This document shows, one piece after another, positions 6,956 to 57,273 of a stretch of 64,000 nucleotides of DNA. This DNA is from Candidatus Poribacteria bacterium (GTDB lineage: Bacteria; Poribacteria; WGA-4E; WGA-3G). Position numbers and translations under genes: made by a program. The first letter of the stretch is position 1. Each line of letters opens with the position of its first letter. The stretch covers positions 460,801-524,800 of the forward strand of contig CBDHCS010000003.1 of NCBI GenBank assembly GCA_965261125.1. Reading direction: 5' to 3'. The notes under the pieces are model-generated. The model made no database searches. It had not been told where the DNA came from and was given only the letters and a program-made list of their open reading frames with translations.

Positions 6956-7252
6956 TTATTCTCCTTGTAGGTTGAGTATGACATCAAATGTATCGTTTTT
7001 TGATGTCTTATTCTTTTTAGTTATACCGCATACTATGCAACGGTGGATTAGAACATAGTCCGCTTGTTTCATGGTGAACCCTATCGGTTCCATTAGTCCC
7101 TTACAAGTTTCAGCGCGATCACCCGGATTGACATCTACGTGTTGACTCCAGAGACATTCCGGGCAATGATTGGTGTAGCCATCTCCTTTCACGAATATTC
7201 CGCAATTTCCACAGGTAAAATCTTCAATGTGACGTTGGAATTTTTTGTTCAA
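6956..7252 (-). CDS. RNHCP-domain zinc-ribbon protein
   Basis: 98 aa with CGNCG...TNHCPECLWSQHVD...PGDR...HRCIVCG, which matches the RNHCP domain signature. Confidence 0.7.
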   Translation of the reverse strand: MNKKFQRHIEDFTCGNCGIFVKGDGYTNHCPECLWSQHVDVNPGDRAETCKGLMEPIGFTMKQADYVLIHRCIVCGITKKNKTSKNDTFDVILNLQGE

Positions 7253-7303
7253 GTGAAAACCTCCAGCTTACGCCGCTCGCTGTTGCGGTTACTCTTAATT
7301 AAT

Positions 7304-42973: not shown

Positions 42974-43249
42974 GTTGTGCCTCCTAATTTTTAGATTGTT
43001 GTGAATTGTAGCATATTCTCAAAATAATCGGTTAAGAAATTTGAAGAAAACCGAAGAAAGCTACAACAAAGGAAAGAGAATCTAAATCTGTTTTACCGTA
43101 AGAATCACAACGCGCCTTTGAAAATATTAACACACCCGTATGTTCTATATCAGTTGACATGCCTCCTATTTGTTGGTATAATTTCAAGTATGTATCCAAT
43201 ATTGAAGTACATTTACCTTGTTATATTTTTTGGAGGCGATAAGCACGTT

Positions 43250-44113
43250 ATGCCAAAAATTTCTCCTTTTTTTGTCTCAAATGAACTGTTAGATCAACCT
43301 GAAAAACTCCGTGAACGAGCTCAGCAAGATGGCTATCTCTTTTTTCATCAGTTAATTGATGAAGAATCCATATACAACTTGCGCAGGGATTTCTTAGAGA
43401 TTTGCCACAGACATGGATGGGCGCAAGGCGGTGCAACACTGATGGAAGGTATACGCACGGGTGGACCATTTATGGAAGGTGATGATGGATATTGGCCCGT
43501 GTTAGACGAATTCCAATCTCTTGAATCGTTTCATGCGTTTGCACATCATCCTGCAGTTTTGGATATGTGCGACAAATTGTTTGGCGAAAAGACACTGGTG
43601 CATCCGCGGAATATCGGAAGAATTATGTTCCCAGAAAACACAAAGTATACAACCCCTGCACATCAAGACTTTATCCATATACGAGGCACAGAAGAGACCT
43701 ATACAGGTTGGATTCCACTGGGTGCGTGTCCTGAATATATGGGCGGATTATCTGTTTTAGCTGGATCCCATCGGTCTGGGATTTATCCCGTGAAGCCAGC
43801 GTTAGGCGCAGGCGGGCTCGGGATTGACACCGATCCGTTAGAAGCGAACGGATTGCACTGGGTTGGCGGAGATTACAAGATAGGTGATGCTATTTTCTTC
43901 CATAGCCATACCGTTCACAAAGCACTGCCAAATCAGTCACCTGATCGCATACGCTTATCAGTGGATTATCGGTATCAAGGTTGCTCACAAGCTGTTACAG
44001 AAGGTTCACTTTTACCACATTTCAATCGGATGCCGTGGGATGAGATTTATAATGGATGGGAATCCACACAATATCAGTATTATTGGAATAATTTTGATCT
44101 TAATCGGGTGTAA
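43250..44113 (+). CDS. phytanoyl-CoA dioxygenase (PhyH)-family Fe(II)/2-oxoglutarate oxygenase
   Basis: The start is taken at MPKISPFF (ATG 43250), inside the longer ORF-track call that begins at 43118. The HxD...H facial triad is HQDFIHIRG ... HSHTVHKALPN. Confidence 0.65.
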   Translation: MPKISPFFVSNELLDQPEKLRERAQQDGYLFFHQLIDEESIYNLRRDFLEICHRHGWAQGGATLMEGIRTGGPFMEGDDGYWPVLDEFQSLESFHAFAHHPAVLDMCDKLFGEKTLVHPRNIGRIMFPENTKYTTPAHQDFIHIRGTEETYTGWIPLGACPEYMGGLSVLAGSHRSGIYPVKPALGAGGLGIDTDPLEANGLHWVGGDYKIGDAIFFHSHTVHKALPNQSPDRIRLSVDYRYQGCSQAVTEGSLLPHFNRMPWDEIYNGWESTQYQYYWNNFDLNRV

Positions 44114-44908: not shown

Positions 44909-45988
44909 TTGTCTAAAAGAATTCTCTTTCTCATAATTGCATTTAGTATAGTTATAGCATTACCATCCTATGCCGAGAATTACACAGGTGATTTTCTGAC
45001 AAACGGCATCGGGGCACGCGCCCTTGGGCTTGGCGGCGCTTATGTTAGCATCGCTGACGATGCTACTGCTACCTACTGGAATCCCGCGGGAATAGCAGGC
45101 GTTCCGCAAAAGTATCAAGTCTGTATGATGCATGCGACACGCCGCTCTGGATTAGGGGCATTTAGTTATGTCAGCAGCATCGGAAAAATATTACCACAAC
45201 TGACGCTCGGTCTGTCATGGATTCGCGCTGGTATTGACGACATCCCTATCTATTACGATGTGCCAGCGTTTGATCCCGCAATTAGTGCTGACCAACGCAA
45301 AAACGACCCGAAATACCGACCACGAGAAGAGGACTTCACACCTTCGGGGTATCTTAACGATAGTGAAAACGCTTTTGTGCTGTCCCTTGCAACACGTTTA
45401 GCCATCAGTCAATCGTGGTGGGATAACTTCGGTAGAGATTCTGTTCCACCTGAATTTCTGTTCGGTCTAAATGTGAAGGGAATCTTTCAGAATTTCAACG
45501 GGGTGGGTGATCTTGACGAGGTTACTTCCGTGTTCTCAACTTACGGAAGTCGCGGATACGGTTTTGATGCGGGTATGTTAATACGTCTACCAGATATGAA
45601 TGCACTTTTCGGTTTGGAAAATGCAGGTGGATTTGCTTTCGGTATGAATCTCCAAGATATATCACAGACAACTTTGACGTGGAACACCTTACCCGCTCTC
45701 AAAGAATCAATACCAGCAAATTTCAATATAGGTCTTGCATATTTTACCAAACTTCTTTTCAATCGAGAATTAATTCTCTCCTATCAATGGCAAGAACGTT
45801 ATGGTGGACAAACACATCTCGGCATAGAATATCATCTCAGCCCTCCGTTAGCACTGCGCATTGGTTACCGCGACACTCGGTTGACAAGTGGAGTCGGTAT
45901 CCAGCTCAAAAAGTTTCGACTTGATTACGCGCTGCTTCTTGGCGATCTAATTAATACACATTTTTTGAGCGTGCTGTGGACTTTTTAA
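44909..45988 (+). CDS. FadL/PorV-like outer-membrane beta-barrel protein
   Basis: The start codon is TTG. After a signal peptide comes the N-terminal GARALGLGGAYVSIADDATATYWNPAGIA motif of the FadL/TodX/PorV superfamily. The protein ends in C-terminal aromatic residues. Confidence 0.6.
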   Translation: MSKRILFLIIAFSIVIALPSYAENYTGDFLTNGIGARALGLGGAYVSIADDATATYWNPAGIAGVPQKYQVCMMHATRRSGLGAFSYVSSIGKILPQLTLGLSWIRAGIDDIPIYYDVPAFDPAISADQRKNDPKYRPREEDFTPSGYLNDSENAFVLSLATRLAISQSWWDNFGRDSVPPEFLFGLNVKGIFQNFNGVGDLDEVTSVFSTYGSRGYGFDAGMLIRLPDMNALFGLENAGGFAFGMNLQDISQTTLTWNTLPALKESIPANFNIGLAYFTKLLFNRELILSYQWQERYGGQTHLGIEYHLSPPLALRIGYRDTRLTSGVGIQLKKFRLDYALLLGDLINTHFLSVLWTF

Positions 45989-47215
45989 TCAGATTTTGGG
46001 TTGGATAAATCTGGTTGACTTCTAAGGAATATCACCAGTGGGGATACCATCAACGGCACTATCACTAACCAATCCAGCACAATAGGTAATCCGTACTTAT
46101 CAGCCAAAGCACCGACAATTAAATTTAATAATCCACCCACTCCCCACGATGCACCCATCATAAAACTTGATGCGATATTCTCATGCCCGCGCAGCATCAT
46201 TTGTGCTAAGATAATGTTAATTGTTACTGAGCTCGTAAGGGCCACGTTACCTAAAAAAAGAAGCACAAGGAAAGCGGCGCCGTTGGTATGAAGTGAGGCG
46301 TAGAGCAGTGGCGGTGCAACGACAAGTGAAATCAGCAGCAAGACCAGCGTATTCACCCTGCTTAGAAACCAACCATTTCCCAGGATACCCACTGAACCGG
46401 CAAAGATATAGAGCGCAAGAACTAATGACCGCTTTTGGTCAGAATAGTCCAGATCATCAAGGTAAATAGAGAGAAAATTTTCTAATCCGGCAATTGTAAG
46501 TGTTCGGAGCGATGCAATAACAAATAGCATAATGAGAGGCAAGAGGTAAGGTCGAGCGACTCTCCAAAAAGATTCACGTATGGAATTGGCATTATCTGAT
46601 AATACGCGTGCAGATGCGGTTAAATCAAGTTCGTGTTCAAATTTCAATACAAACGGAATAAATAGTGCGACAAGGACCCCTGGTATCATCTCCCAGACTA
46701 AATGGCTTAACCCAAAACGGTATGGAATGTATAAGAGGACTAGCGGCCCAAGGGCGCGACCAATATTGCCACCTGTGAGAAAAATAGAAATACCCATTCC
46801 TCTTGTTTCTGCGGCAAGTGCGCCAGCATAAGTCGTCGCTTGTGGATGAAATGCGGCAACACCTGTACCTCCAATGGCTAACAACAGGTACAATATAAAT
46901 GGTGAAGGTGCCACTACCACTAGACTTAATCCCACTGCAGTCAAAGCAACACCGAATGTTAGGAAATGGACTGTCCGCACCCTATCCGAAAGCCAACCGA
47001 AGAGTATCTGTCCGAGAGAACTGAAAATGTAAAAAAGTGCAATAAGGATACCTGCAAAACTGTTCTTTGCAGTTGCTGGGGCTAATCTGCTTGTCAACTT
47101 TGGAAGAATATGCGATAAGAGTGTTGCGTAAGAATCAAGGACGGTATGTGTGAATGTGAGAAAGAAAAACTGGTTACGTGTGGATGAATTCGAAGGGTCC
47201 AAGTCATTTTTCATA
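45985..47215 (-). CDS. MFS transporter
   Basis: Multiple TM helices. The likely start is the ATG at ~47215 (MKNDLDPS...), not the ORF-track extension to 47379. Confidence 0.75.
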
Positions 47216-47449
47216 GTATTGAAAATTACAATTATTAAATATTTTATAGGCACGCCAGTGAAATTAGCCGTTGGTATTCGGGCAATGTCTACATAATTCA
47301 GATTATTCTGTAGTTTCAGTTGTGATTCTTCTGTATTAACTCTGCACATCTGATTAGTCAAACTGTATACTAATACCAAATCAACTTAATTAGAGATTCC
47401 TAAGAGAGTCAGTATTGCGAGGTACAGAAACCTCACAATACAAGTCAGG

Positions 47450-47914
47450 TTAATTTGGCATTAGATCAATTCTCGCGTTTAAATGTGCATATCCTCCTGA
47501 ATCTTTAGAGATTTCCTGAGAGATATTAGTCACTTTTACATCAACTTCGTCACCCTGAGTGAGATTATCGGATATTTTTGAAGTATGGATCATTCCTGTA
47601 ATCCCTTCTTCTATCTCAACGAAAACTCCAAACTTTTGCAATTTTGTAACATAACCGGTAACTATTGTGCCGATAGGGTAATTCTGTTCTAATTGATTAA
47701 AGTTTTTAGAACTTAGCGTTATCTCATTTCTTTCACAATTAATATCAATAACTACTACTTCAACAATATCTCCAATTGAAAATACTTCTGCGGGATGATT
47801 TACGCTTTTCCAATCCAATTCGGATCTGTGAATGAATCCATCAACGTCATCGTTGAGGACAATAATCGCACCAGAATCAGTGATCCTAGTGATTTTCCCT
47901 TTGACTTTTTGCAA
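47450..47914 (-). CDS. tandem S1 RNA-binding domain protein
   Basis: 154 aa with two S1-like OB segments (GKITRITDSGAIIVL...GFIHRSEL and GTIVTGYVTKLQKFGVFVEIEEGITGMIH). Confidence 0.7.
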   Translation of the reverse strand: MQKVKGKITRITDSGAIIVLNDDVDGFIHRSELDWKSVNHPAEVFSIGDIVEVVVIDINCERNEITLSSKNFNQLEQNYPIGTIVTGYVTKLQKFGVFVEIEEGITGMIHTSKISDNLTQGDEVDVKVTNISQEISKDSGGYAHLNARIDLMPN

Positions 47915-47985: not shown

Positions 47986-49038
47986 CTAAATCAATGTTAG
48001 TAACACCAGTCTCTTGCTAACTGAAACAACTTCGGATGAATGATTTAATGTTTCGCTATTGTTACTGATAAATTCATCGCGAATAGTTACTACTTTGTGT
48101 TTTTCTTTATGGGCATCGATCCACTCAAGAACCTCGACCATGTGGTATAAGCAGGTCCTGGTGTATTCTGGATCAATATCCTCTGTGTCAGTATGTACAA
48201 CTAGGTTTCGAGATTCACCTATCAGTCCTATTCTACTCCGAACATCCCTGTTGGGATCGAAATGGGAAGCAAAGGCACATTCCCATCTTGCTCTGAATAA
48301 GTGGGGGACACTCACAATATCTATGTCAGATTCGGTTTTGACTCTCTTTTCTCCGTTTTTAATTGGAGTATTCTTTAGTTTATTCGCCATAAAACTTCGT
48401 ATCGCAGGAAAATAGTTCTGATAGATAGCCAAATAAAGTACGTGTTGGTTGGGAAATTTTACCGTATTGATATCTGAAGAATCCGATTTATGTTTCAGTG
48501 CATCAGGTTTATCAACATTCGATCCGCTGGTAGATTCCAAGTCCGAGGTTTTCCCTTGATCAACGTGCCCATTACCTTGATGATTTTCACGTAGTCTCAA
48601 TGATTCGGAGATTTCCTTTACATCCGATAGAAGATCATCTTCACGCGGCTGTTCCCTCACTACTTTGAAGCCGAAATGTTCTCCTATAACTGACAAAGTG
48701 TCATAGTCTAAACGTTGATCAACTTCTGCTGGCACATTTAATTCCCTTAAAGACTTAATCAAATCTATTAGTTGTAATTTAAGTAATGATGCTAGTGAAC
48801 CGATTGTAGATCCTTCTAAAATCTGCAACGGAGCTTCGGACGATTTCTCTCTTTTTGATGCGATTTTAACTTCTTTTTCTTGTTTAGGGGCTAAATTGGA
48901 TTCAACTGACATAATTGTTTCTGGATCTAAAGTAGACATGTGGTTTTTTACGTTAACGCCTGAGTCGATTAATTTCTTAATGAGTATTTTACTACTTAAT
49001 CCATGTTTTTTTGCCAATTCATAAACTCTCATATTCAT
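47986..49038 (-). CDS. protein with two IF2-N-type domains and C-terminal HEPN-like (Rx4H) domain
   Basis: An AAGGAG ribosome-binding site precedes the ATG. Residues 3-40 (VYELAKKHGLSSKILIKKLIDSGVNVKNHMSTLD) match the IF2_N signature. A second IF2 N2-like segment follows (TIGSLASLL...IKSLRELNVPAEVDQRLDYDTLSVIGEHFGFKV). The C-terminus has ESRNLVVHT, an R-x4-H HEPN motif. Confidence 0.6.
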   Translation of the reverse strand: MNMRVYELAKKHGLSSKILIKKLIDSGVNVKNHMSTLDPETIMSVESNLAPKQEKEVKIASKREKSSEAPLQILEGSTIGSLASLLKLQLIDLIKSLRELNVPAEVDQRLDYDTLSVIGEHFGFKVVREQPREDDLLSDVKEISESLRLRENHQGNGHVDQGKTSDLESTSGSNVDKPDALKHKSDSSDINTVKFPNQHVLYLAIYQNYFPAIRSFMANKLKNTPIKNGEKRVKTESDIDIVSVPHLFRARWECAFASHFDPNRDVRSRIGLIGESRNLVVHTDTEDIDPEYTRTCLYHMVEVLEWIDAHKEKHKVVTIRDEFISNNSETLNHSSEVVSVSKRLVLLTLI

Positions 49039-49209: not shown

Positions 49210-49467
49210 TTATTTAAAGATAGCAACGACAACAGAGATGATCAGTGCCCCGATGGCACATGCGGTGACTATCCAGCTGCGCATCCCTGCAATCGCACTT
49301 TGCTTGCCTTTGAGTTCTGATATACCGTTCTCAACATCACGAAGTCTTGTATCCATCCCATCTAAACGTTGATTGACTTCTGTAAAACGTTGATTGACTT
49401 CTGCAAAGTCTGCTTTGACTTGATCAAAACCGTCTTTCATCAGTTGATAGAGTTCTTCATTTGTCAT
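49210..49467 (-). CDS. small tail-anchored coiled-coil membrane protein (XhlA-like)
   Basis: 85 aa with a strong AAGGAGG ribosome-binding site. The N-terminus is a heptad coiled coil and the C-terminus a single TM (WIVTACAIGALIISVVVAIF). Confidence 0.6.
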   Translation of the reverse strand: MTNEELYQLMKDGFDQVKADFAEVNQRFTEVNQRLDGMDTRLRDVENGISELKGKQSAIAGMRSWIVTACAIGALIISVVVAIFK

Positions 49468-49572: not shown

Positions 49573-51324
49573 TTACCTTTTTTTAGAGGCTTTGTCAAGA
49601 GCTGTATAAGGTGTTTTCTTCTTTTGAGCCTTCCTTCTTGCGCACCAATACGTAAACTGCCGATAATAATAACCTATATTTTTCGGAATGTTCTCAAATT
49701 CTGGCACGAATTGACACATCCCACCCAGAACAACCAACTGCTCCTTCGCACGCGTCATTGCTACATAAAAGACGCGGCGTTCTTCTTCAAGGACCGTATC
49801 CTTCCGCGGAAACCTACGATCCAACGTGTTGTGAATAAGGATAACCCTCTCCCATTCACGTCCCTTTGCTTTGTGTATTGTTGTCACCTCTACTGGAGGA
49901 GATTCGGGCACACTGGATAATATCTCATCAATCCGATCAACCTCGTAGTTCGTTCTGACAAGGATTGCGGTCTCAACATTCTCGGATATTTTTTCTAATA
50001 GATGTTTTTTGATGGTTTCAGGCGTTGTCTCTATAATGTCTATCTCATTTTTTATCGGATTATAGGAACGTAGGTTTTTCCGAATCCGAGGCTTGTTTCG
50101 TTCAATTATGGCTCTTGCATGCTCAACAATTGTTGACGTGGAACGATAATTACGGGTTATCTCATATTGAACGACATCTGATCGGTTGGAAAATTTCTGC
50201 ATAATTTGGGAATCACCGCCGCGAAAGCTATAAATCGCTTGGTCATCGTCTCCGACCGTAAAAAGATTCTCTGATAACTGCGAAATCAACCGAAAGTCAA
50301 TCGGTGCAATGTCTTGAAATTCGTCAACAAGCACATAAGGGTATCTGTCTTGGTAGGTCTGGCGGATATCTGGATGAGTTTCTAACAGATTTGCGGCGTA
50401 GATAATCATATCCTCAAAATCAACAGCATTCGCTGCTGATTTTTGGTCTTCATATTTCTTTGCAAATTCGCGTGCAACAGGATTTTGTAATGTGTTTGGA
50501 TCAAAAAGCCCGGCTTTAACCTGTCGCTTTGCTCGCATAACAATCTCCTTTATATCGTTGAAACGTTCACGGAGATTTTCAAAATCGGGGTCTCTATCCA
50601 GATGATCAGTGTATTGGACATTAAAGTGTTGGCAGAACATCTCAAGCATAAGTTGATTGCTAAATTGTTCTCGCATCGGGTCTGCTCGGTTGAACACTTC
50701 GCTGCAGTTTTTGTAATATCTAATCCAATGTGCTTCGCGTCTGTTCGCCTCTCTTCCTTCAACCTGTTCCAACACCTTAAAAGTGAACTGCGATTCTCCT
50801 TCAGCTCGAATGGCTTGACGGAGTCGATCATTTGATGAGTGGTCAAAATGTTCACGCCTACGCCGCTCTGGATTTGTTGACTGTCCTATATAACATTTGC
50901 CCGTCTGTTTGTTCTGAATTTTATAGATGGAAACAGTCGTTTTTGACGCTGTCTGCTCAATTTGTTTTCTTTCTTCTGTAATAATTCGATTGATTTCGCC
51001 TGACCAAATTTCGGGACGATGTCCAAATCCTGCACGCTTGTAGTTTGCGGTGACAATGTCTTTCCCAAAAGCGTGGAGCGTACGGATGACTGGCAAAGTC
51101 TCTTTTGACTTTAGCCCAAGGATAATCCGATTTTCCATCTCTTCAACTGCTTTTCTATTGAATGCTATGGCGAGGATTTTTGAGGGAGGAATATTGTGGG
51201 TTCGAATGAGGTTGAGAATACGTGCTGTTACGACTCTCGTTTTACCGCTCCCTGGTCCAGCGACAACGATGGCAGGTCCAGTAAAATGGTTGACAGCTTT
51301 CTCTTGGTTTTTGTCAAGATTCAT
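49573..51324 (-). CDS. compact UvrD-like SF1 helicase with inserted GIY-YIG nuclease domain
   Basis: Helicase motif I is VVAGPGSGKT, motif Ia AIAFNRKA, motif II VLVDEFQD and motif III VGDDDQAIYSFRGG, with TTIHKAKGREWERVIL and YVAMTRAKEQL as motifs V and VI. Between Ia and II lies SIYKIQNKQTGKCYIGQSTN...RRRREH...E...N, a GIY-YIG nuclease signature. Confidence 0.75.
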   Translation of the reverse strand: MNLDKNQEKAVNHFTGPAIVVAGPGSGKTRVVTARILNLIRTHNIPPSKILAIAFNRKAVEEMENRIILGLKSKETLPVIRTLHAFGKDIVTANYKRAGFGHRPEIWSGEINRIITEERKQIEQTASKTTVSIYKIQNKQTGKCYIGQSTNPERRRREHFDHSSNDRLRQAIRAEGESQFTFKVLEQVEGREANRREAHWIRYYKNCSEVFNRADPMREQFSNQLMLEMFCQHFNVQYTDHLDRDPDFENLRERFNDIKEIVMRAKRQVKAGLFDPNTLQNPVAREFAKKYEDQKSAANAVDFEDMIIYAANLLETHPDIRQTYQDRYPYVLVDEFQDIAPIDFRLISQLSENLFTVGDDDQAIYSFRGGDSQIMQKFSNRSDVVQYEITRNYRSTSTIVEHARAIIERNKPRIRKNLRSYNPIKNEIDIIETTPETIKKHLLEKISENVETAILVRTNYEVDRIDEILSSVPESPPVEVTTIHKAKGREWERVILIHNTLDRRFPRKDTVLEEERRVFYVAMTRAKEQLVVLGGMCQFVPEFENIPKNIGYYYRQFTYWCARRKAQKKKTPYTALDKASKKR

Positions 51325-53540: not shown

Positions 53541-53798
53541 CATAGCAACTTGGGTTATATTATAAGGCTATAGGACAGAATATATTTCCGCGATAACTGA
53601 TTTTTTAACTTGCATCTATTTACGAAGTATGTTAAACTAATGGCAATTGTCAAAGTTGAGTCAATTTTTTAGCAAATCTGCCAAAAATCAAGAATTATTG
53701 AATATATTTGCTAACATATCCGGTAAATTCGCAAATTAGTTGGAAATGTGGTAAACTCTATCGTAAAGTCACCCTTTTTGTCTGAGGAGACGTTCAAA

Positions 53799-55698
53799 AT
53801 GAACGATAAAGAGAAATTTAACAACGAAAAAGAAAAGTTCGGTGAGACTGGCGGAAACCGTTATGATCATAAATCTTTTGAAGACGAGGATGAGTTGGAA
53901 CTGGAGGAGGATATTGAGGATGAGACAAATTCCAACTACTCCCAGCGATTTATTAACTCGCACCAGAACCATTATGATCGTGGATCTTTTGAGGATGAGG
54001 ATGAGTTGGAACTGGAGGAGGATATTGAAGATGAGGCAAGTTCTGGCTATTCCTTGCGGTTAATCCATCATATTATCTCAGAAACACCCGTGGAAGACCG
54101 TAGACGGCGTTTGTTAATTGAATTACGCCGCTCAATCATCAATGATGAAGGCGAATTTCGGCAGAGAGTTCGAGCCATTGAACAGGAAGCAGTCCGCATA
54201 CATACTGAGATGGCAGAACAAATTGATAAACTGACCGCGCCAGCAAATCGCATCGGAACACTCCTCGCGATCCCCGAAGACGACACAGCACGCGTCACTG
54301 TTGCCGGATCTGAATACTATGCTAATATTGACCCGCAATTAGAGACAGAAAACCTTAAAAAAGGAATGAGTGTGCTTCTAAACGAGGCTTTTGTCGTTGT
54401 TGGTGAACTCGGCTATACTGAATCAGGACCAATTGCCAAAATTGCCGATGTACTTCCCGATGGCAGGCTTCGCGTTGGGTCTGAACCGAGTCTCCAATCT
54501 GTTATTATTGAACGCGCTACAGATTTGGCAGATGTCAAACTAAAGTCCGGTGACGAAGTCCGCCTTGATGCCAATTTAAAGGTTGCCATTGAACGAATCG
54601 CCTCAAAAGAGCAGAAAGATTATGCACTTGAAGCAGTACCGCAAATTCCATGGACAAAAGTTGGCGGACTTGACGAAACTATTCAGCGGATTAAGGATAC
54701 TATTGAACAACCGATTCTGCACCCTGAACTCTTCAAGCGGTTTCAATATACTGTACCAAAAGGATTCCTTCTCCACGGTCCCCCCCGGTTGTGGCAAAAC
54801 GCTTATCGGGAAAGCAACCGCTTATAACTTAACAGAACGTCTCAAAACAGAAACAGGTGAGGAGATTGAAGGTACTTTCCTTCATATTAAAGGTCCTGAA
54901 ATACTCAATATGTGGCTCGGTGAGTCGGAGCGGAAAGTCAGAGAAATCTTTCAGATGGCACGCGAGAAGCGCGATGAGGGTAAACTTGCATTTGTCTTTA
55001 TTGACGAAGCAGAATCCATTTTGGGAACTCGCCGTGCTATGCGCTCACATAGCATCTCTAATACGCTGGTACCGATGTTCTGCGCAGAAATGGATGGAAT
55101 TGAACCCTTGCAAGAGGTCGTTATCATTTTAGCAACTAATCGTCCCGACTTAATTGACCCAGCTATTCTCCGACCAGGACGAATTGATAGAAAAATTAAA
55201 GTGACACGCCCAAATAAAGAGGCTGCCAAAGATATTTTCGGTATCTATCTAACACCGGACCTCCCCATTGAAATGGAAGATAGTGAGACTACAGACAAAG
55301 AGGTCGTTGATGACTTGATAACACAAGTCATTGATGAAATGTTTCGCGAATCAACAGAAAACCGATTCCTTGAAGTTGCGCTTCGCAGCGGTAGGCGCGA
55401 CATTCTCTACCGCGGTCATCTCTGTAGCGGTGCAATCATTGAGTCTATTGTTCAGAGAGCGAAAGAATCTGCTATGAAACGTGCCATCGCAGCCCCCGAA
55501 ACAGAGACAGGCATTTCGTTAGACGATCTATTAGGCGCACTCAATTCAGAATATAGCGAAAACGACATTTTTCCGCCGACCGAGGCTACTGAGGATTGGC
55601 TTAAACTTCTTGACTATGATCCCGTGAATGTTGTTAAAGTTACGCCTATTCAAACAGAAAAGAGAGAGTCCCAAAAAACACCAAGTCCGGTGATTTAA
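53799..55698 (+). CDS. arc: proteasome-associated AAA ATPase ARC/Mpa, interrupted by +1 frameshift in a C7 tract (54780-54786)
   Basis: A GAGGAG ribosome-binding site precedes ATG 53799. The first ORF ends ...LLHGPPRLWQ. The overlapping second frame continues (GPP)GCGKTLIGKA (Walker A) and then Walker B FVFIDEAES, which reconstitutes one AAA protein. The position 5' of dop-pup-prcBA-pafA fits arc. Confidence 0.8.
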
Positions 55699-55755: not shown

Positions 55756-57273
55756 ATGCATAGACTTTTTGGAATCGAAACTGAATACGGCATTACACTC
55801 GAAAGTGCTGAACAAATTGATCCGGTCAAGGAATCGATTGAACTGATAAAGAATTATCGGCGCGACCCGTTCTTACCACTCTGGGACTACAACGGCGAAG
55901 ACCCATTTCGAGATGAACGCGGTTTCCGAGCAAAGCACCTCAATAACCATCCTGATGAAGTGGAGGAAGAAAAACGCGACAAAGAGCGATTTGCCAAAGA
56001 ACCGGGGCGTTCTTTCCGAGAGATCAAAAGTGATCGTATCCTTATTAATGGTGCACGGCTTTACAATGACCACGCGCATCCAGAATATTCGACACCGGAG
56101 TGTCAAGACCTGTTTGATCTCGTCGCACACGATAAAGCTGGAGAGAGAATCCTCCAGAAATGTGCTGAAAGACGTAGCCAAGAACTTGGTGAACGTGTCA
56201 TCTTATATAAAAACAATACTGATTTCTACGGACATAGTTACGGATGCCACGATAATTATCTTATGGCTCGCGAAGTGCCTTTTGATTACCTTAAAACTTG
56301 CATTCTCCCGTTTTTCGTTACACGACAAATTTTTGCTGGAGCTGGCAAAATAGGTATTGAAACCGAAGCAGGACTCGCGACACCTGGACATTTTCAACTC
56401 ACACAACGTTCCGACTTCTTTCACGTTGAAGCAAGTGTGGATACGATGCACAAACGGCCTATCGTTAACACGCGAGACGAACCGCATGCTGACCCCGCTA
56501 CATATCGCCGACTTCACGGTATCGTCGGAGACGCAAACATGTCTGAATACGCAACGGCACTCAAGATCGGGACAACTGCTCTTGTTATTGACCTAATTGA
56601 ACAGCGGCTTGTTCCTACGGCATTCGCAATTGCCAATCCTATTGATACCATCAAAACAATTTCGCATGACCAGACGTACCGATGGATGCTACAGAAAGTT
56701 GATGGGAAAATGATCAGTGCAATTGACCATCAACGTGAATATCTTGCGCTTGCACAAAAACATCTTGCACATCAAAATAGTGACACCGATTGGGTCTTGA
56801 CACAGTGGGAGGAGACGCTCGACGCACTTGAAAATGACCCCATGACACTTATAGATCGTCTCGATTGGGTTGCCAAAAAATGGTTGTTGGAAACCTTTGT
56901 TGAATCAGAAGATATTGAATGGGACGATCCTTGGTTGCAAAGCATTGATTTAGAGTACCATAACATCGATCTTGAAGAGGGGTTATTTTACGGATTACAG
57001 ATGCAACGGGTTGTAACGGATGAACAGATTCGGACCGCTATACAGACGCCACCATTGAACACGCGCGCTTATTTCCGTGGCACATCCCTTAACAGATTTG
57101 AAGATGCTATAAAAACTGTCCAATGGGACAGTATTACTTTTGATATTAAAGGCAAACCAGTTACCGTTAACATGAATTCGCTTGCAAACCCTGAACTTGC
57201 ACGAAAATATAATGAAGCTCTTGACCAATCACCAAACCTCCAAACCCTTGTAGAAAAACTTGGTTTACACTAA
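55756..57273 (+). CDS. dop: Pup deamidase/depupylase Dop (PafA/Dop family)
   Basis: 505 aa. The N-terminus MHRLFGIETEYG is the carboxylate-amine ligase signature of the Dop/PafA family. The gene sits immediately upstream of pup, as in actinobacteria, and is longer than its paralog at 59178-60638. Confidence 0.75.
   Translation: MHRLFGIETEYGITLESAEQIDPVKESIELIKNYRRDPFLPLWDYNGEDPFRDERGFRAKHLNNHPDEVEEEKRDKERFAKEPGRSFREIKSDRILINGARLYNDHAHPEYSTPECQDLFDLVAHDKAGERILQKCAERRSQELGERVILYKNNTDFYGHSYGCHDNYLMAREVPFDYLKTCILPFFVTRQIFAGAGKIGIETEAGLATPGHFQLTQRSDFFHVEASVDTMHKRPIVNTRDEPHADPATYRRLHGIVGDANMSEYATALKIGTTALVIDLIEQRLVPTAFAIANPIDTIKTISHDQTYRWMLQKVDGKMISAIDHQREYLALAQKHLAHQNSDTDWVLTQWEETLDALENDPMTLIDRLDWVAKKWLLETFVESEDIEWDDPWLQSIDLEYHNIDLEEGLFYGLQMQRVVTDEQIRTAIQTPPLNTRAYFRGTSLNRFEDAIKTVQWDSITFDIKGKPVTVNMNSLANPELARKYNEALDQSPNLQTLVEKLGLH

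Follow-up and report, generated by a model that had tools for sequence, protein, structure and literature searches.

The 583-residue protein and its motor motifs

The window analysed here is a stretch of 64,000 nucleotides. The listing of its open reading frames (ORFs) contains exactly one ORF of 583 residues, the length given in the initial annotation, at 49573..51324 on the minus strand. The features of this gene are as follows.

49573..51324, minus strand: UvrD-like SF1A helicase with a nested GIY-YIG nuclease, 583 residues, complete ORF (ORF list, profile searches and PDB alignment)
51040..51324, minus strand: N-terminal part of RecA-like domain 1A, residues 1–95, with the Q residue and motifs I and Ia (aligned to D. 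radiodurans UvrD residues 13–77)
51238..51261, minus strand: motif I (Walker A), residues 22–29, A22-GPGSGKT-29 (sequence and PDB alignments)
51136..51177, minus strand: motif Ia, residues 50–63 (sequence and PDB alignments)
50941..51039, minus strand: first long helix of domain 1B, residues 96–128, running into the nuclease (AlphaFold helix 110–128)
50680..50940, minus strand: I-TevI-type GIY-YIG nuclease domain, residues 129–215 (PF01541, TIGR01453, phrog_7168, Foldseek, dN/dS)
50425..50679, minus strand: remaining helices of domain 1B, residues 216–300, with the family-specific junction VFNRADP..YSNQL..EMFCQHF (AlphaFold helices 223–233, 251–267 and 282–297)
50140..50334, minus strand: block of motifs II, III and IV (alignment to UvrD, PcrA and Rep), comprising motif II (DEFQD), residues 331–338, 331-VLVDEFQD-338; motif III, residues 355–370, 355-FTVGDDDQAIYSFRGG-370; and motif IV, residues 389–395, 389-ITRNYRS-395 (each from sequence and PDB alignments)
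49900..50049, minus strand: short 2A-type strands and helices, residues 426–475, at the canonical site of the ~170-residue domain 2B, which is absent (UvrD alignment and AlphaFold)
49735..49887, minus strand: motifs V and VI of domain 2A (aligned to UvrD 560–626), comprising motif V, residues 480–491, 480-VTTIHKAKGREW-491, and motif VI, residues 514–530, 514-EERRVFYVAMTRAKEQL-530 (both from sequence and PDB alignments)

In Pfam, the UvrD-helicase family (PF00580) matches residues 3–381 with E 7.9e-63, but this long stretch covers only profile positions 1–269, which implies a large insertion inside the helicase domain. PF13361 is also matched (E 1e-23), and UvrD_C matches residues 475–532. All the SF1A motor motifs (Q, I, Ia and II–VI) are present in canonical order. 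Motifs I and Ia had been placed before the insert and motifs II–VI after it, and these assignments hold when the protein is aligned with the structures of UvrD, PcrA and Rep. The AlphaFold model of the full-length protein matches the same three helicases (Foldseek, E ~1e-18); it is a moderate model, with a pLDDT of 73 and low confidence at residues 360–425 and 500–583. The chain ends about 50 residues past motif VI. A search for contigs that encode the protein gave no exact match. Promoter and terminator scans gave nothing above shuffle expectation.

A GIY-YIG domain nested in domain 1B

The insert is recognised as a GIY-YIG nuclease by several searches. PF01541 matches residues 133–206 with 37.6 bits, against a gathering cut-off of 22.6, and the homing endonuclease family phrog_7168 (E 2.3e-19) is the best profile match among phage protein families. 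The score for TIGR01453, the I-TevI family in NCBIfam, is 53.7 bits, just under its cut-off of 56.05. The signature residues are I133-Y134, Y145-I146-G147, R155, E158-H159, E197 and N212, of which Y134, Y145, G147, R155, E158, H159, E197 and N212 are the catalytic residues. The GIY-YIG signature had already been noticed in the initial annotation, and it is borne out by the curated Pfam threshold and by the invariance of the catalytic residues in 77 orthologs.

The annotation had also left it to structure prediction to show whether the insert folds as a GIY-YIG domain, and it does. An AlphaFold model of the insert only (residues 100–300) has a pLDDT of 85.6, and in a Foldseek search of the PDB the catalytic domain of I-TevI (1mk0 and 1ln0) ranks top, with a TMt of 0.79–0.80, an rmsd of 2.2–2.8 Å and 25% sequence identity; the GIY-YIG domains of UvrC are the next structural matches. 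The fold that defines the GIY-YIG superfamily is β-β-α-α-β-α, and the insert has the corresponding AlphaFold secondary structure, together with the sequence motifs, the central arginine, the C-terminal glutamate and the asparagine of the I-TevI/UvrC branch. No NUMOD or helix-turn-helix DNA-binding module was found by Pfam in the 583-residue protein.

The size and position of the insert need some adjustment. The domain had been taken as a block of about 70 residues, and is in fact about 85–90 residues long. It had been described as lying inside the helicase core; it does lie between motifs Ia and II, but in the accessory domain 1B rather than directly in the RecA core. Domain 1B is itself an insertion in the RecA-like domain 1A, and the nuclease is nested within it: residues 281 onward align to UvrD residues 174 onward, inside 1B, and both the alignment and the AlphaFold model indicate that 1B keeps its own helices, with the nuclease adding approximately 110 residues.

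Domain 2B presents the opposite case. Residues 419–478, about 59 residues leading up to motif V, replace approximately 246 residues in E. coli and D. radiodurans UvrD, and within this section AlphaFold predicts only a β-α-β-α-β arrangement at residues 426–475. It is the near-complete absence of domain 2B that makes the protein short. The earlier view that 1B and 2B are both reduced is thus right for 2B and wrong for 1B, because the insert enlarges 1B and the helices are retained. The four-subdomain layout 1A/1B/2A/2B is not found here: the ~170-residue 2B is missing and 1B is broken by the GIY-YIG domain. We regard it as almost certain that the architecture is that of a UvrD-like SF1A helicase which has a GIY-YIG domain nested in 1B and has lost 2B.

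Conservation and distribution

Both modules are under strong purifying selection. Their catalytic residues are invariant in 77 of 77 orthologs, those of the motor being K28, T29, D334, E335, Q337, D338, Q362, R394, R516 and R525. In the same orthologs dN/dS is 0.089 for the GIY-YIG domain, 0.078 for the remaining part of 1B (residues 216–300) and 0.077–0.104 for the motor segments, so that the value for the insert is the same as that for the motor core.

The family comprises more than 120 clusters (at least 70% identity), every one with PF01541. All taxon-named matches but one are from Candidatus Poribacteria, the exception being labelled Geodia barretti, a sponge. Genome loci were collected as loci that contain the gene; the best 80 of 108 confirmed loci are all from Candidatus Poribacteria, and come from different species-representative genomes except for two (L003 and L004). 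Orthologs are 70–90% identical across the phylum, which is comparable to the adjoining housekeeping genes. [quoted passage not shown] Inheritance is vertical and phylum-wide in Poribacteria.

The ancestry of the insert raises the alternative that it is a selfish homing endonuclease, inserted in frame and tolerated as a parasite that is of no use to the helicase. The TIGR01453 and phrog_7168 scores given above place the insert closest to the homing endonucleases of phages and group I introns, and it is 30–44% identical to viral GIY-YIG genes. Moreover, a GIY-YIG domain inserted in an HsdR subunit was judged possibly irrelevant to function in a 2006 survey of the superfamily (PMC1564403). The features of a mobile element are nevertheless missing. 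The insert lies in frame within the helicase, under selection equal to that on the motor core and with a TIGR01453 score below the cut-off; it is a fixed part of all orthologs and paralogs examined, with no insert-free allele among the top matches of the family, and it shows neither intein or intron features nor NUMOD modules. In the long paralogs described below the domain has been duplicated in tandem, and the decay is asymmetric, affecting the second copy only. A selfish insertion is therefore, in our judgement, very improbable. Helicase nesting occurs in none of the 80 viral GIY-YIG loci listed, none of the phage and plasmid records runs across the junction between helicase and GIY-YIG domain, and collections of phages, plasmids and viral contigs contain no example of the architecture. 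A GIY-YIG domain of homing-endonuclease type has been domesticated inside domain 1B of a UvrD-type motor, and has been kept across an uncultivated phylum of sponge symbionts.

Long paralogs and the S1 gene

Poribacteria also contain more than 100 diversified long paralogs, 35–65% identical and with variable C-terminal modules. They combine the motor with a tandem pair of GIY-YIG domains (the second degenerate), after which come GrpE-like and S1 or TPR modules, with one to four S1 domains accompanying the GrpE-like module. The motor is intact, as is the first nuclease copy in 107 of 112. Long paralogs are often found directly downstream of the short gene, and nine of the long forms tested mapped to this position at 100% or nearly 100% identity. 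A search for homologues of the GrpE module gave three matches only. It was also considered whether the long GrpE/S1 forms come from other phyla, and this was rejected, the named matches being from Poribacteria and nine of the long forms mapping next to the short gene.

One further gene of the window belongs here.

47450..47914, minus strand: gene with two S1 domains (colinear with long-paralog C-termini, same slot)

It aligns colinearly with the final pair of S1 domains in the long forms (36–39% identity), right to the C-terminal end of these proteins, and its position just before the MFS gene is the slot occupied by the long form at loci L005, L013, L015, L056, L066, L077 and L081. The gene has probably been left over from the 3′ end of a long paralog (UvrD, two GIY-YIG domains, GrpE and S1) or split off from one. 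At other loci most of the S1 matches are C-terminal parts of long paralogs. S1 and IF2_N genes were considered as conserved operon partners and rejected, being found at only 8/80 and 1/80 of the best 80 of 108 loci respectively.

The added modules may retarget the same helicase-nuclease core, and the S1 and GrpE fusions hint at RNA-linked or chaperone-linked roles that go beyond a simple model of DNA repair. PcrA and UvrD act in RNA polymerase backtracking and R-loop suppression, and HelD and HelR in RNA polymerase recycling; HelD is UvrD-like, lacks 2B, and has a different functional arm at the position of 1B, and is in this respect a precedent. A possible function would be that of a remodeller acting at RNA polymerase or at RNA:DNA hybrids, with S1 binding the RNA and the nuclease nicking DNA where R-loops or stalled complexes occur. 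The fusion of the core to S1 and GrpE-like domains in the paralogs, the S1 gene kept in the cluster of the window and weak NCBIfam matches of the core to HelD and HelR are all consistent with this. However, these matches are limited to the generic motor, the short form has no S1 domain, and S1 genes adjoin it at only the eight loci just mentioned. PcrA and UvrD carry an RNA-polymerase-binding domain C-terminal to the motor, whereas a general Pfam search, which is not specific for such domains, gave no domain match in this part of the short form. GIY-YIG enzymes, in addition, are DNA endonucleases. We consider such a role for the family improbable.

Genomic neighbourhood

The neighbours within the window are housekeeping genes. 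Among the best 80 of 108 loci, purL-purQ lies upstream in 48–52 of 80, and MFS-OMP lies downstream in about 31–33 of 80. The gene immediately downstream in the window is a recurrent neighbour.

49210..49467, minus strand: 85-residue coiled-coil ORF with a C-terminal transmembrane segment, immediately downstream (recurrent neighbour)

A homologue of this ORF, 66–100% identical, is found directly downstream of the ortholog at 25 of 80 Poribacteria loci (best 80 of 108). It has a weak match to XhlA-like phage families and no Pfam match above cut-off, and is a possible partner of the helicase-nuclease.

It is worth adding that small variable cassettes flank the gene. These contain the XhlA-like ORF and an IF2_N protein with a faint hint of an Apea-like HEPN domain, while HNH-like genes are found at other loci and a PemK toxin and a methyltransferase at L081.

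The fusion of a helicase and a nuclease is a recurrent and common design in defence systems, and the initial annotation had called the present one typical of defence. On that reading the protein would be an effector against phages or plasmids that would recognise foreign DNA and degrade it in the manner of Cas3, RecBCD, Nhi, Hna or DruE, and the variable S1, TPR and GrpE paralogs would be its sensing or regulatory variants. The best PADLOC matches are indeed GajB profiles (E 6.8e-66), and the variable cassettes and the rapidly diversified paralogs together resemble a pattern also seen in conflict systems. The remaining observations point elsewhere. The GajB matches cover only the generic UvrD core, PADLOC gives no defence-profile match among the neighbouring ORFs, and neither GajA (OLD ATPase-TOPRIM) nor any other defence partner is found nearby; Gabija, or another known defence system, was therefore rejected. 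The annotation had also proposed inspecting the neighbourhoods of homologues, and these show a fixed slot of conserved housekeeping synteny across the best 80 of 108 loci. This, a dN/dS of approximately 0.1, the phylum-wide identity noted above and the lack of any phage or plasmid carrier in the collections covered go against the description as typical of defence. Positive support for a defence role comes from none of the lines examined, and we consider the role doubtful. The gene resembles part of the chromosomal core, and not a mobile module directed against phages.

Possible function

On the basis of these observations, we hypothesise that the protein is a self-contained, ATP-driven helicase-nuclease in a single polypeptide. 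Judging from family membership, the RecA-like domains 1A and 2A would use ATP to translocate 3′→5′ along the single-stranded DNA that they bind. In UvrD-type helicases the 1B arm lines the path of the DNA at the junction between single strand and duplex. Here that arm would carry a nicking or cleaving domain of low specificity at the junction, so that the enzyme would cut the DNA that is being loaded on or unwound. Domain 2B is autoinhibitory in Rep, and its loss would leave the motor constitutively competent. In this scheme we infer the polarity, the substrate and the way in which cutting is tied to unwinding.

That the protein works enzymatically as a helicase-nuclease is reasonably probable; for a housekeeping role the chances are a little under even. 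We regard chromosomal DNA processing (in repair, in recombination or at replication forks) as the most likely function, ahead of a mobile anti-phage one, and the statement as a whole, that this is a lineage-specific SF1A helicase-nuclease for chromosomal DNA processing, has in our view slightly better than even odds. A wider proposal would join the short enzyme and the long paralogs into one Poribacteria system, in which the active/inactive GIY-YIG pair, a GrpE-like module for DnaK recruitment or dimerisation, and S1 or TPR domains for RNA or protein sensing would couple the detection of aberrant or foreign nucleic acid, or of transcription state, to DNA cutting. It would constitute a new class of conflict system or of transcription-coupled genome surveillance, and we consider it unlikely.

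Fusions of a helicase and a nuclease play a central part both in DNA repair (RecBCD, AddAB, Dna2) and in immunity (Cas3, Druantia, Nhi). Among the familiar examples, to our knowledge, the nuclease is appended at one end of the motor. If the nuclease acts on the unwound strand, the present protein would be a compact 'unwind-and-cut' enzyme of one chain (~570 residues), in which a new geometry would couple translocation to cleavage, and it might find use as a tool scaffold. It also provides a clean example of a host repair-type protein recruiting a selfish nuclease domain, and the fusion of its paralogs to GrpE, S1 and TPR modules points to connections of chaperones and RNA binding with DNA cutting that have yet to be explored.

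Comparison with known systems

The protein shares with UvrD, PcrA and Rep all the SF1A motifs, the 1A and 2A cores and the helices of 1B, and these are its best matches in both sequence (4c2u, E 2e-41) and structure (Foldseek, as above). It differs from them in having no 2B and in carrying a nuclease of about 90 residues in 1B. No PcrA/UvrD-type C-terminal domain was detected in the 583-residue protein. It was rejected as a canonical ortholog of any of the three, since 2B is missing and the NCBIfam equivalog scores are far below the cut-offs (PcrA 219.9 vs 911.2 bits, Rep 194 vs 951, UvrD 184.3 vs 1144).

The insert has the same fold as I-TevI and the same catalytic constellation (Y, Y-x-G, R...H, E, N). 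Unlike I-TevI it is not free-standing, intron-encoded or intein-encoded, and it lacks the linker, zinc finger, NUMOD and helix-turn-helix; here the helicase stands in for the DNA-binding tether.

GajB of Gabija is, like the present protein, a compact UvrD-like helicase, and its solved structures align to residues 313–459. GajB has no GIY-YIG domain, however, and the match is to the generic motor only; no GajA, OLD or TOPRIM match is present among the neighbouring ORFs.

Literature searches gave no published description of a UvrD-type helicase with a GIY-YIG domain nested in 1B. Two earlier reports were found of GIY-YIG domains with helicase-type motors (Dunin-Horkawicz et al., 2006; PMC1564403). 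In the Tetrahymena Tlr8p / Polinton-type SF1 helicase the GIY-YIG domain follows the helicase and is C-terminal. In the second case it is inserted inside a motor subunit, the SF2 restriction subunit HsdR, and a homolog of 80% identity lacks it. Neither case is of UvrD type with a phylum-conserved nuclease nested in 1B.

RecB, AddA and AdnB, which are also among the structural matches, similarly couple a UvrD-like SF1A motor to a nuclease that cuts the translocated DNA. They act as parts of heteromeric complexes, with a nuclease domain of PD-(D/E)xK type C-terminal to the motor. The present protein has a GIY-YIG domain nested in 1B and no partner subunits identified, and Pfam and NCBIfam find no PD-(D/E)xK domain in it, which sets it apart from the RecB/AddA type. 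As regards the mode of working, RecB, AddA and AdnB are probably its closest analogy.

Domain organisation of the helicase

The only ORF of its kind in the window lies on the minus strand (49573..51324) and encodes a 583-aa protein. Pfam identifies a UvrD/REP N-terminal helicase domain at residues 3–381 (E 7.9e-63), a GIY-YIG catalytic domain at residues 133–206 (37.6 bits against a gathering cut-off of 22.6) and UvrD_C at residues 475–532. The N-terminal match spans just 269 profile positions, and the helicase domain therefore contains a big insertion. In NCBIfam the protein scores far under all of the UvrD, PcrA and Rep equivalog cut-offs, and is near threshold for TIGR01453, a group I intron endonuclease family (53.7 against 56.05 bits).

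A phmmer search of PDB sequences pairs residues 3–67 with 13–77 of D. radiodurans UvrD (motifs I and Ia), residues 281–422 with 174–319 (the end of 1B and motifs II–IV) and residues 472–534 with 560–626 (motifs V–VI). Since this alignment covers motifs I–VI, the motif assignments of the initial annotation stand. The full-length AlphaFold2 model (pLDDT 73) matches UvrD, PcrA and Rep in Foldseek at E ~1e-18.

UvrD has two RecA-like motor subdomains, 1A and 2A, and two accessory subdomains, 1B and 2B. In E. coli UvrD their limits are reportedly (Lee & Yang 2006) 1–89 and 215–280 (1A), 90–214 (1B), 281–377 and 551–647 (2A) and 378–550 (2B), by which the equivalent of 1B here is residues ~96–300. 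The AlphaFold2 models place in this region a long helix (110–128), a β-β-α-α-β-α unit (130–207) and three further helices (223–233, 251–267 and 282–297). Helices on either side of the unit mean that the nuclease is nested within 1B. The accessory domains had been annotated as reduced: for 1B this is wrong, as the nested nuclease enlarges it by ~110 residues, while for 2B it holds. Only ~59 residues separate residue 419 from motif V, compared with ~246 in UvrD in the phmmer alignment, and AlphaFold2 models them as a plain β-α-β-α-β stretch, so that the ~170-aa 2B domain is absent. This accounts for the short overall length of the protein.

The nested nuclease

Residues 100–300, modelled alone using AlphaFold2, gave a mean pLDDT of 85.6, with means of 89–97 in the nuclease block. 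The three best PDB matches found by Foldseek are the catalytic domain of I-TevI (1mk0, 1ln0; target-normalised TM 0.79–0.80, rmsd 2.2–2.8 Å, 25% identity, probability 1.00), and the next are UvrC GIY-YIG domains. The insert thus forms a GIY-YIG fold, and its nesting inside a UvrD-like helicase, as first annotated, is borne out by the Pfam domains, the phmmer alignment and the match to I-TevI. PHROGs profiles group it with phage homing-endonuclease families (phrog_7168, E 2.3e-19). Its catalytic set is Y134, Y145-I-G147, R155, E158-H159, E197 and N212, with an R-to-H spacing identical to that of R27 to H31 in I-TevI.

For analysis of selection, we codon-aligned the window gene with 76 orthologous coding sequences, all intact and taken from species-representative genomes. 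All 77 sequences are identical at the GIY-YIG catalytic positions and at the key positions of the motor. Among the closest 14 genomes, dN/dS has a median of 0.089 in the GIY-YIG segment and is 0.077–0.104 in the motor segments (0.106 overall), and the nuclease is therefore under purifying selection at the level of the ATPase. Because of this constraint, a selfish insertion that is merely tolerated is rejected as extremely improbable. The protein combines an SF1A motor with an I-TevI-type nuclease carried by its 1B arm, both of them intact, and has no 2B; the two modules are jointly under purifying selection.

One short ortholog, at Poribacteria locus L081 (7428–9259), has a frameshift near residues 78–101, because of which the database gene call is 422 aa, with no recorded GIY-YIG match, although the locus still contains the GIY-YIG coding region at 67% identity.

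Distribution

Searching 5.8 billion proteins by word index gave more than 120 clusters at ≥70% identity, all of ~571 aa and all containing PF01541. All named matches are Candidatus Poribacteria, save one labelled as the sponge Geodia barretti, whose sequence presumably comes from a symbiont. When 1.84 billion cluster representatives were searched exhaustively with HMMER, the GIY-YIG-bearing core was common to ~27 clusters, and lower-ranked matches cover the motor part only. One genome per GTDB species was also scanned with the family-specific pattern [RKQ]CYIGQ[TS][TIV][ND], giving 108 confirmed loci, of which the best 80 are all from Poribacteria MAGs. On the basis of these 80, the architecture is likely to be strictly limited to Poribacteria.

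In IMG/VR there are 335 matching stretches, to the GIY-YIG core only (30–44% identity); none of the 80 retrieved has a helicase-embedded GIY-YIG, and records spanning the helicase/nuclease junction are absent from both INPHARED (phages) and PLSDB (plasmids). Two of the viral contigs, L126 (2104–3123 and 5001–5252) and L146 (2500–3162 and 5001–5255), carry a free-standing GIY-YIG gene ~2 kb from a UvrD-like helicase gene, the helicase match in L126 being continuous, without insert. Such closeness could be a setting from which in-frame capture arises.

Genomic neighbourhood

The genes around the helicase are as follows.

49210–49467, minus strand: 85-aa coiled-coil/TM ORF, downstream
47986–49038, minus strand: 350-aa protein with two IF2_N domains, downstream
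47450–47914, minus strand: protein with two S1 domains, downstream
Fourth gene downstream, same strand: MFS transporter
Upstream: PorV-like outer-membrane protein, C26 peptidase and Pup-proteasome genes

Among the best 80 of the 108 loci, the helicase is present in all (they were retrieved by its own pattern). It is followed by an MFS gene in 33 and an OMP-like gene in 31, mostly directly adjoining, and by the 85-aa ORF, directly downstream, in 25 (66–100% identity); an S1 match is found in eight and the IF2_N protein in one. Upstream, purL-purQ and a 143-aa membrane protein occur in 48–52. This arrangement is that of a core gene which is inherited vertically and keeps to one slot, with small variable cassettes alongside. 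No PADLOC model matches the helicase's unknown neighbours in the window. The earlier suggestion of a defence function is thus unsupported, the gene being conserved, in fixed synteny and free of defence partners, and on these grounds we favour a role in chromosomal DNA processing. A role in a conflict system, for which the variable flanking cassettes and the diversity of the paralogs, with their sensor-like modules, would speak, appears unlikely.

Among these 80 loci, L002, the closest relative of the window, is the only one that shares the IF2_N protein at this position, which marks it as a variable cassette. The protein has a C-terminal R-x4-H motif (RNLVVH) and a faint, below-threshold match to Apea-like HEPN (E 0.11), and is a possible RNase-type toxin. 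The 85-aa ORF combines a coiled coil with a TM segment at its C-terminus, bears a weak resemblance to phage proteins of the XhlA/'hemolysin' type (phrog_1193, E 2e-4), and at times sits between short and long paralogs. Just upstream of the helicase, 17–22 loci have a pair of genes of 184 and 144 aa (as in L021, 8566–9569), the 144-aa member with an HNH-like CxxC...H motif; L081 has a PemK-family toxin and an N6/N4 DNA methyltransferase upstream (217–1974 and 6966–7274).

A block of PhyH-like dioxygenase, OMP-like 359-aa protein and MFS transporter, from 43118–44113 (+) to 45985–47379 (-), is syntenic with L081 and many other Poribacteria loci, and anchors the conserved chromosomal position of the cluster. 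Elsewhere in the window, an ARC/Mpa-like proteasomal ATPase (53748–55698, plus strand; OB domains, then an AAA domain) is followed by a PafA/Dop-like gene (55756–57273), and this genome therefore has a Pup-proteasome cluster. The ATPase gene is split into two overlapping ORFs by a frameshift at ~54779–54786, where a tract of seven C inside the Walker A codons (HGPPGCGKT) contains one C too many. A homopolymer sequencing error is the probable cause; otherwise the gene is a pseudogene.

Long paralogs

In remoter relatives, which are 780–1640 aa long, this motor and nuclease core continues into a GrpE-like domain (PF01025, E down to 1e-27) and then into one to four S1 domains; some of these proteins have TPR repeats or an FGE-sulfatase domain. 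Named matches are annotated 'nucleotide exchange factor GrpE [Candidatus Poribacteria]', so these forms also belong to Poribacteria, and a search seeded with one of them drops sharply in score to UvrD helicases lacking the insert. In most long forms the GIY-YIG domain is present as a tandem pair. The first copy has the complete catalytic set in 107/112; the second has lost R...EH and the Glu, and keeps the family-specific junction into the remainder of 1B. It is unusual for a GrpE domain to be fused to a helicase-nuclease. Fusion to S1 and GrpE would fit a role linked to RNA or transcription, which we regard as improbable, more so than a conflict role.

In ~17 of the 80 species (best 80 of 108 loci) a long paralog lies directly downstream of the short gene, some with the 85-aa ORF in between and MFS next. 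The examples are:

L005, 11454–15467
L081, 10001–14908
also L013, L015, L020, L034, L056, L066 and L077

The window has no long paralog. Its S1 gene is colinear with the final pair of S1 domains in the long forms, to their C-termini (36–39% identity), and has the same position before MFS. We read it as a remnant or split-off of a long paralog, whose helicase-nuclease-GrpE part would have been lost in the lineage of the window and L002, with the IF2_N gene now in that slot.

Possible mechanism and comparison with known systems

By analogy with related helicases, the motor would move 3'→5' on ssDNA, and 1B would adjoin the DNA path near the junction. In Rep, 2B is autoinhibitory. The I-TevI catalytic domain alone has little sequence specificity and relies on a tethering DNA-binding module (PMC1564403). 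The most economical model is that helicase and nuclease act in one chain, where the motor would stand in for the DNA-binding tether of the homing endonuclease and bring the nuclease to DNA under unwinding.

Full-text literature searches turned up no account of a UvrD-type helicase with a nested GIY-YIG, nor of GrpE/S1 fusions to such a core. A 2006 survey of GIY-YIG proteins gives only Tlr8p, in which the GIY-YIG lies C-terminal to an SF1 helicase, and an HsdR subunit with an inserted GIY-YIG (PMC1564403). Public annotations read 'UvrD-helicase domain-containing protein', 'AAA family ATPase' or 'nucleotide exchange factor GrpE'. The short form is a lineage-specific, functionally constrained and uncharacterised probable helicase-nuclease: familiar components stand in a new architecture, the fusions seen in its paralogs are odd, and the biology is inferential. 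On the model above it would be functionally analogous to RecB and AddA, but its nuclease differs from theirs in both fold and position.
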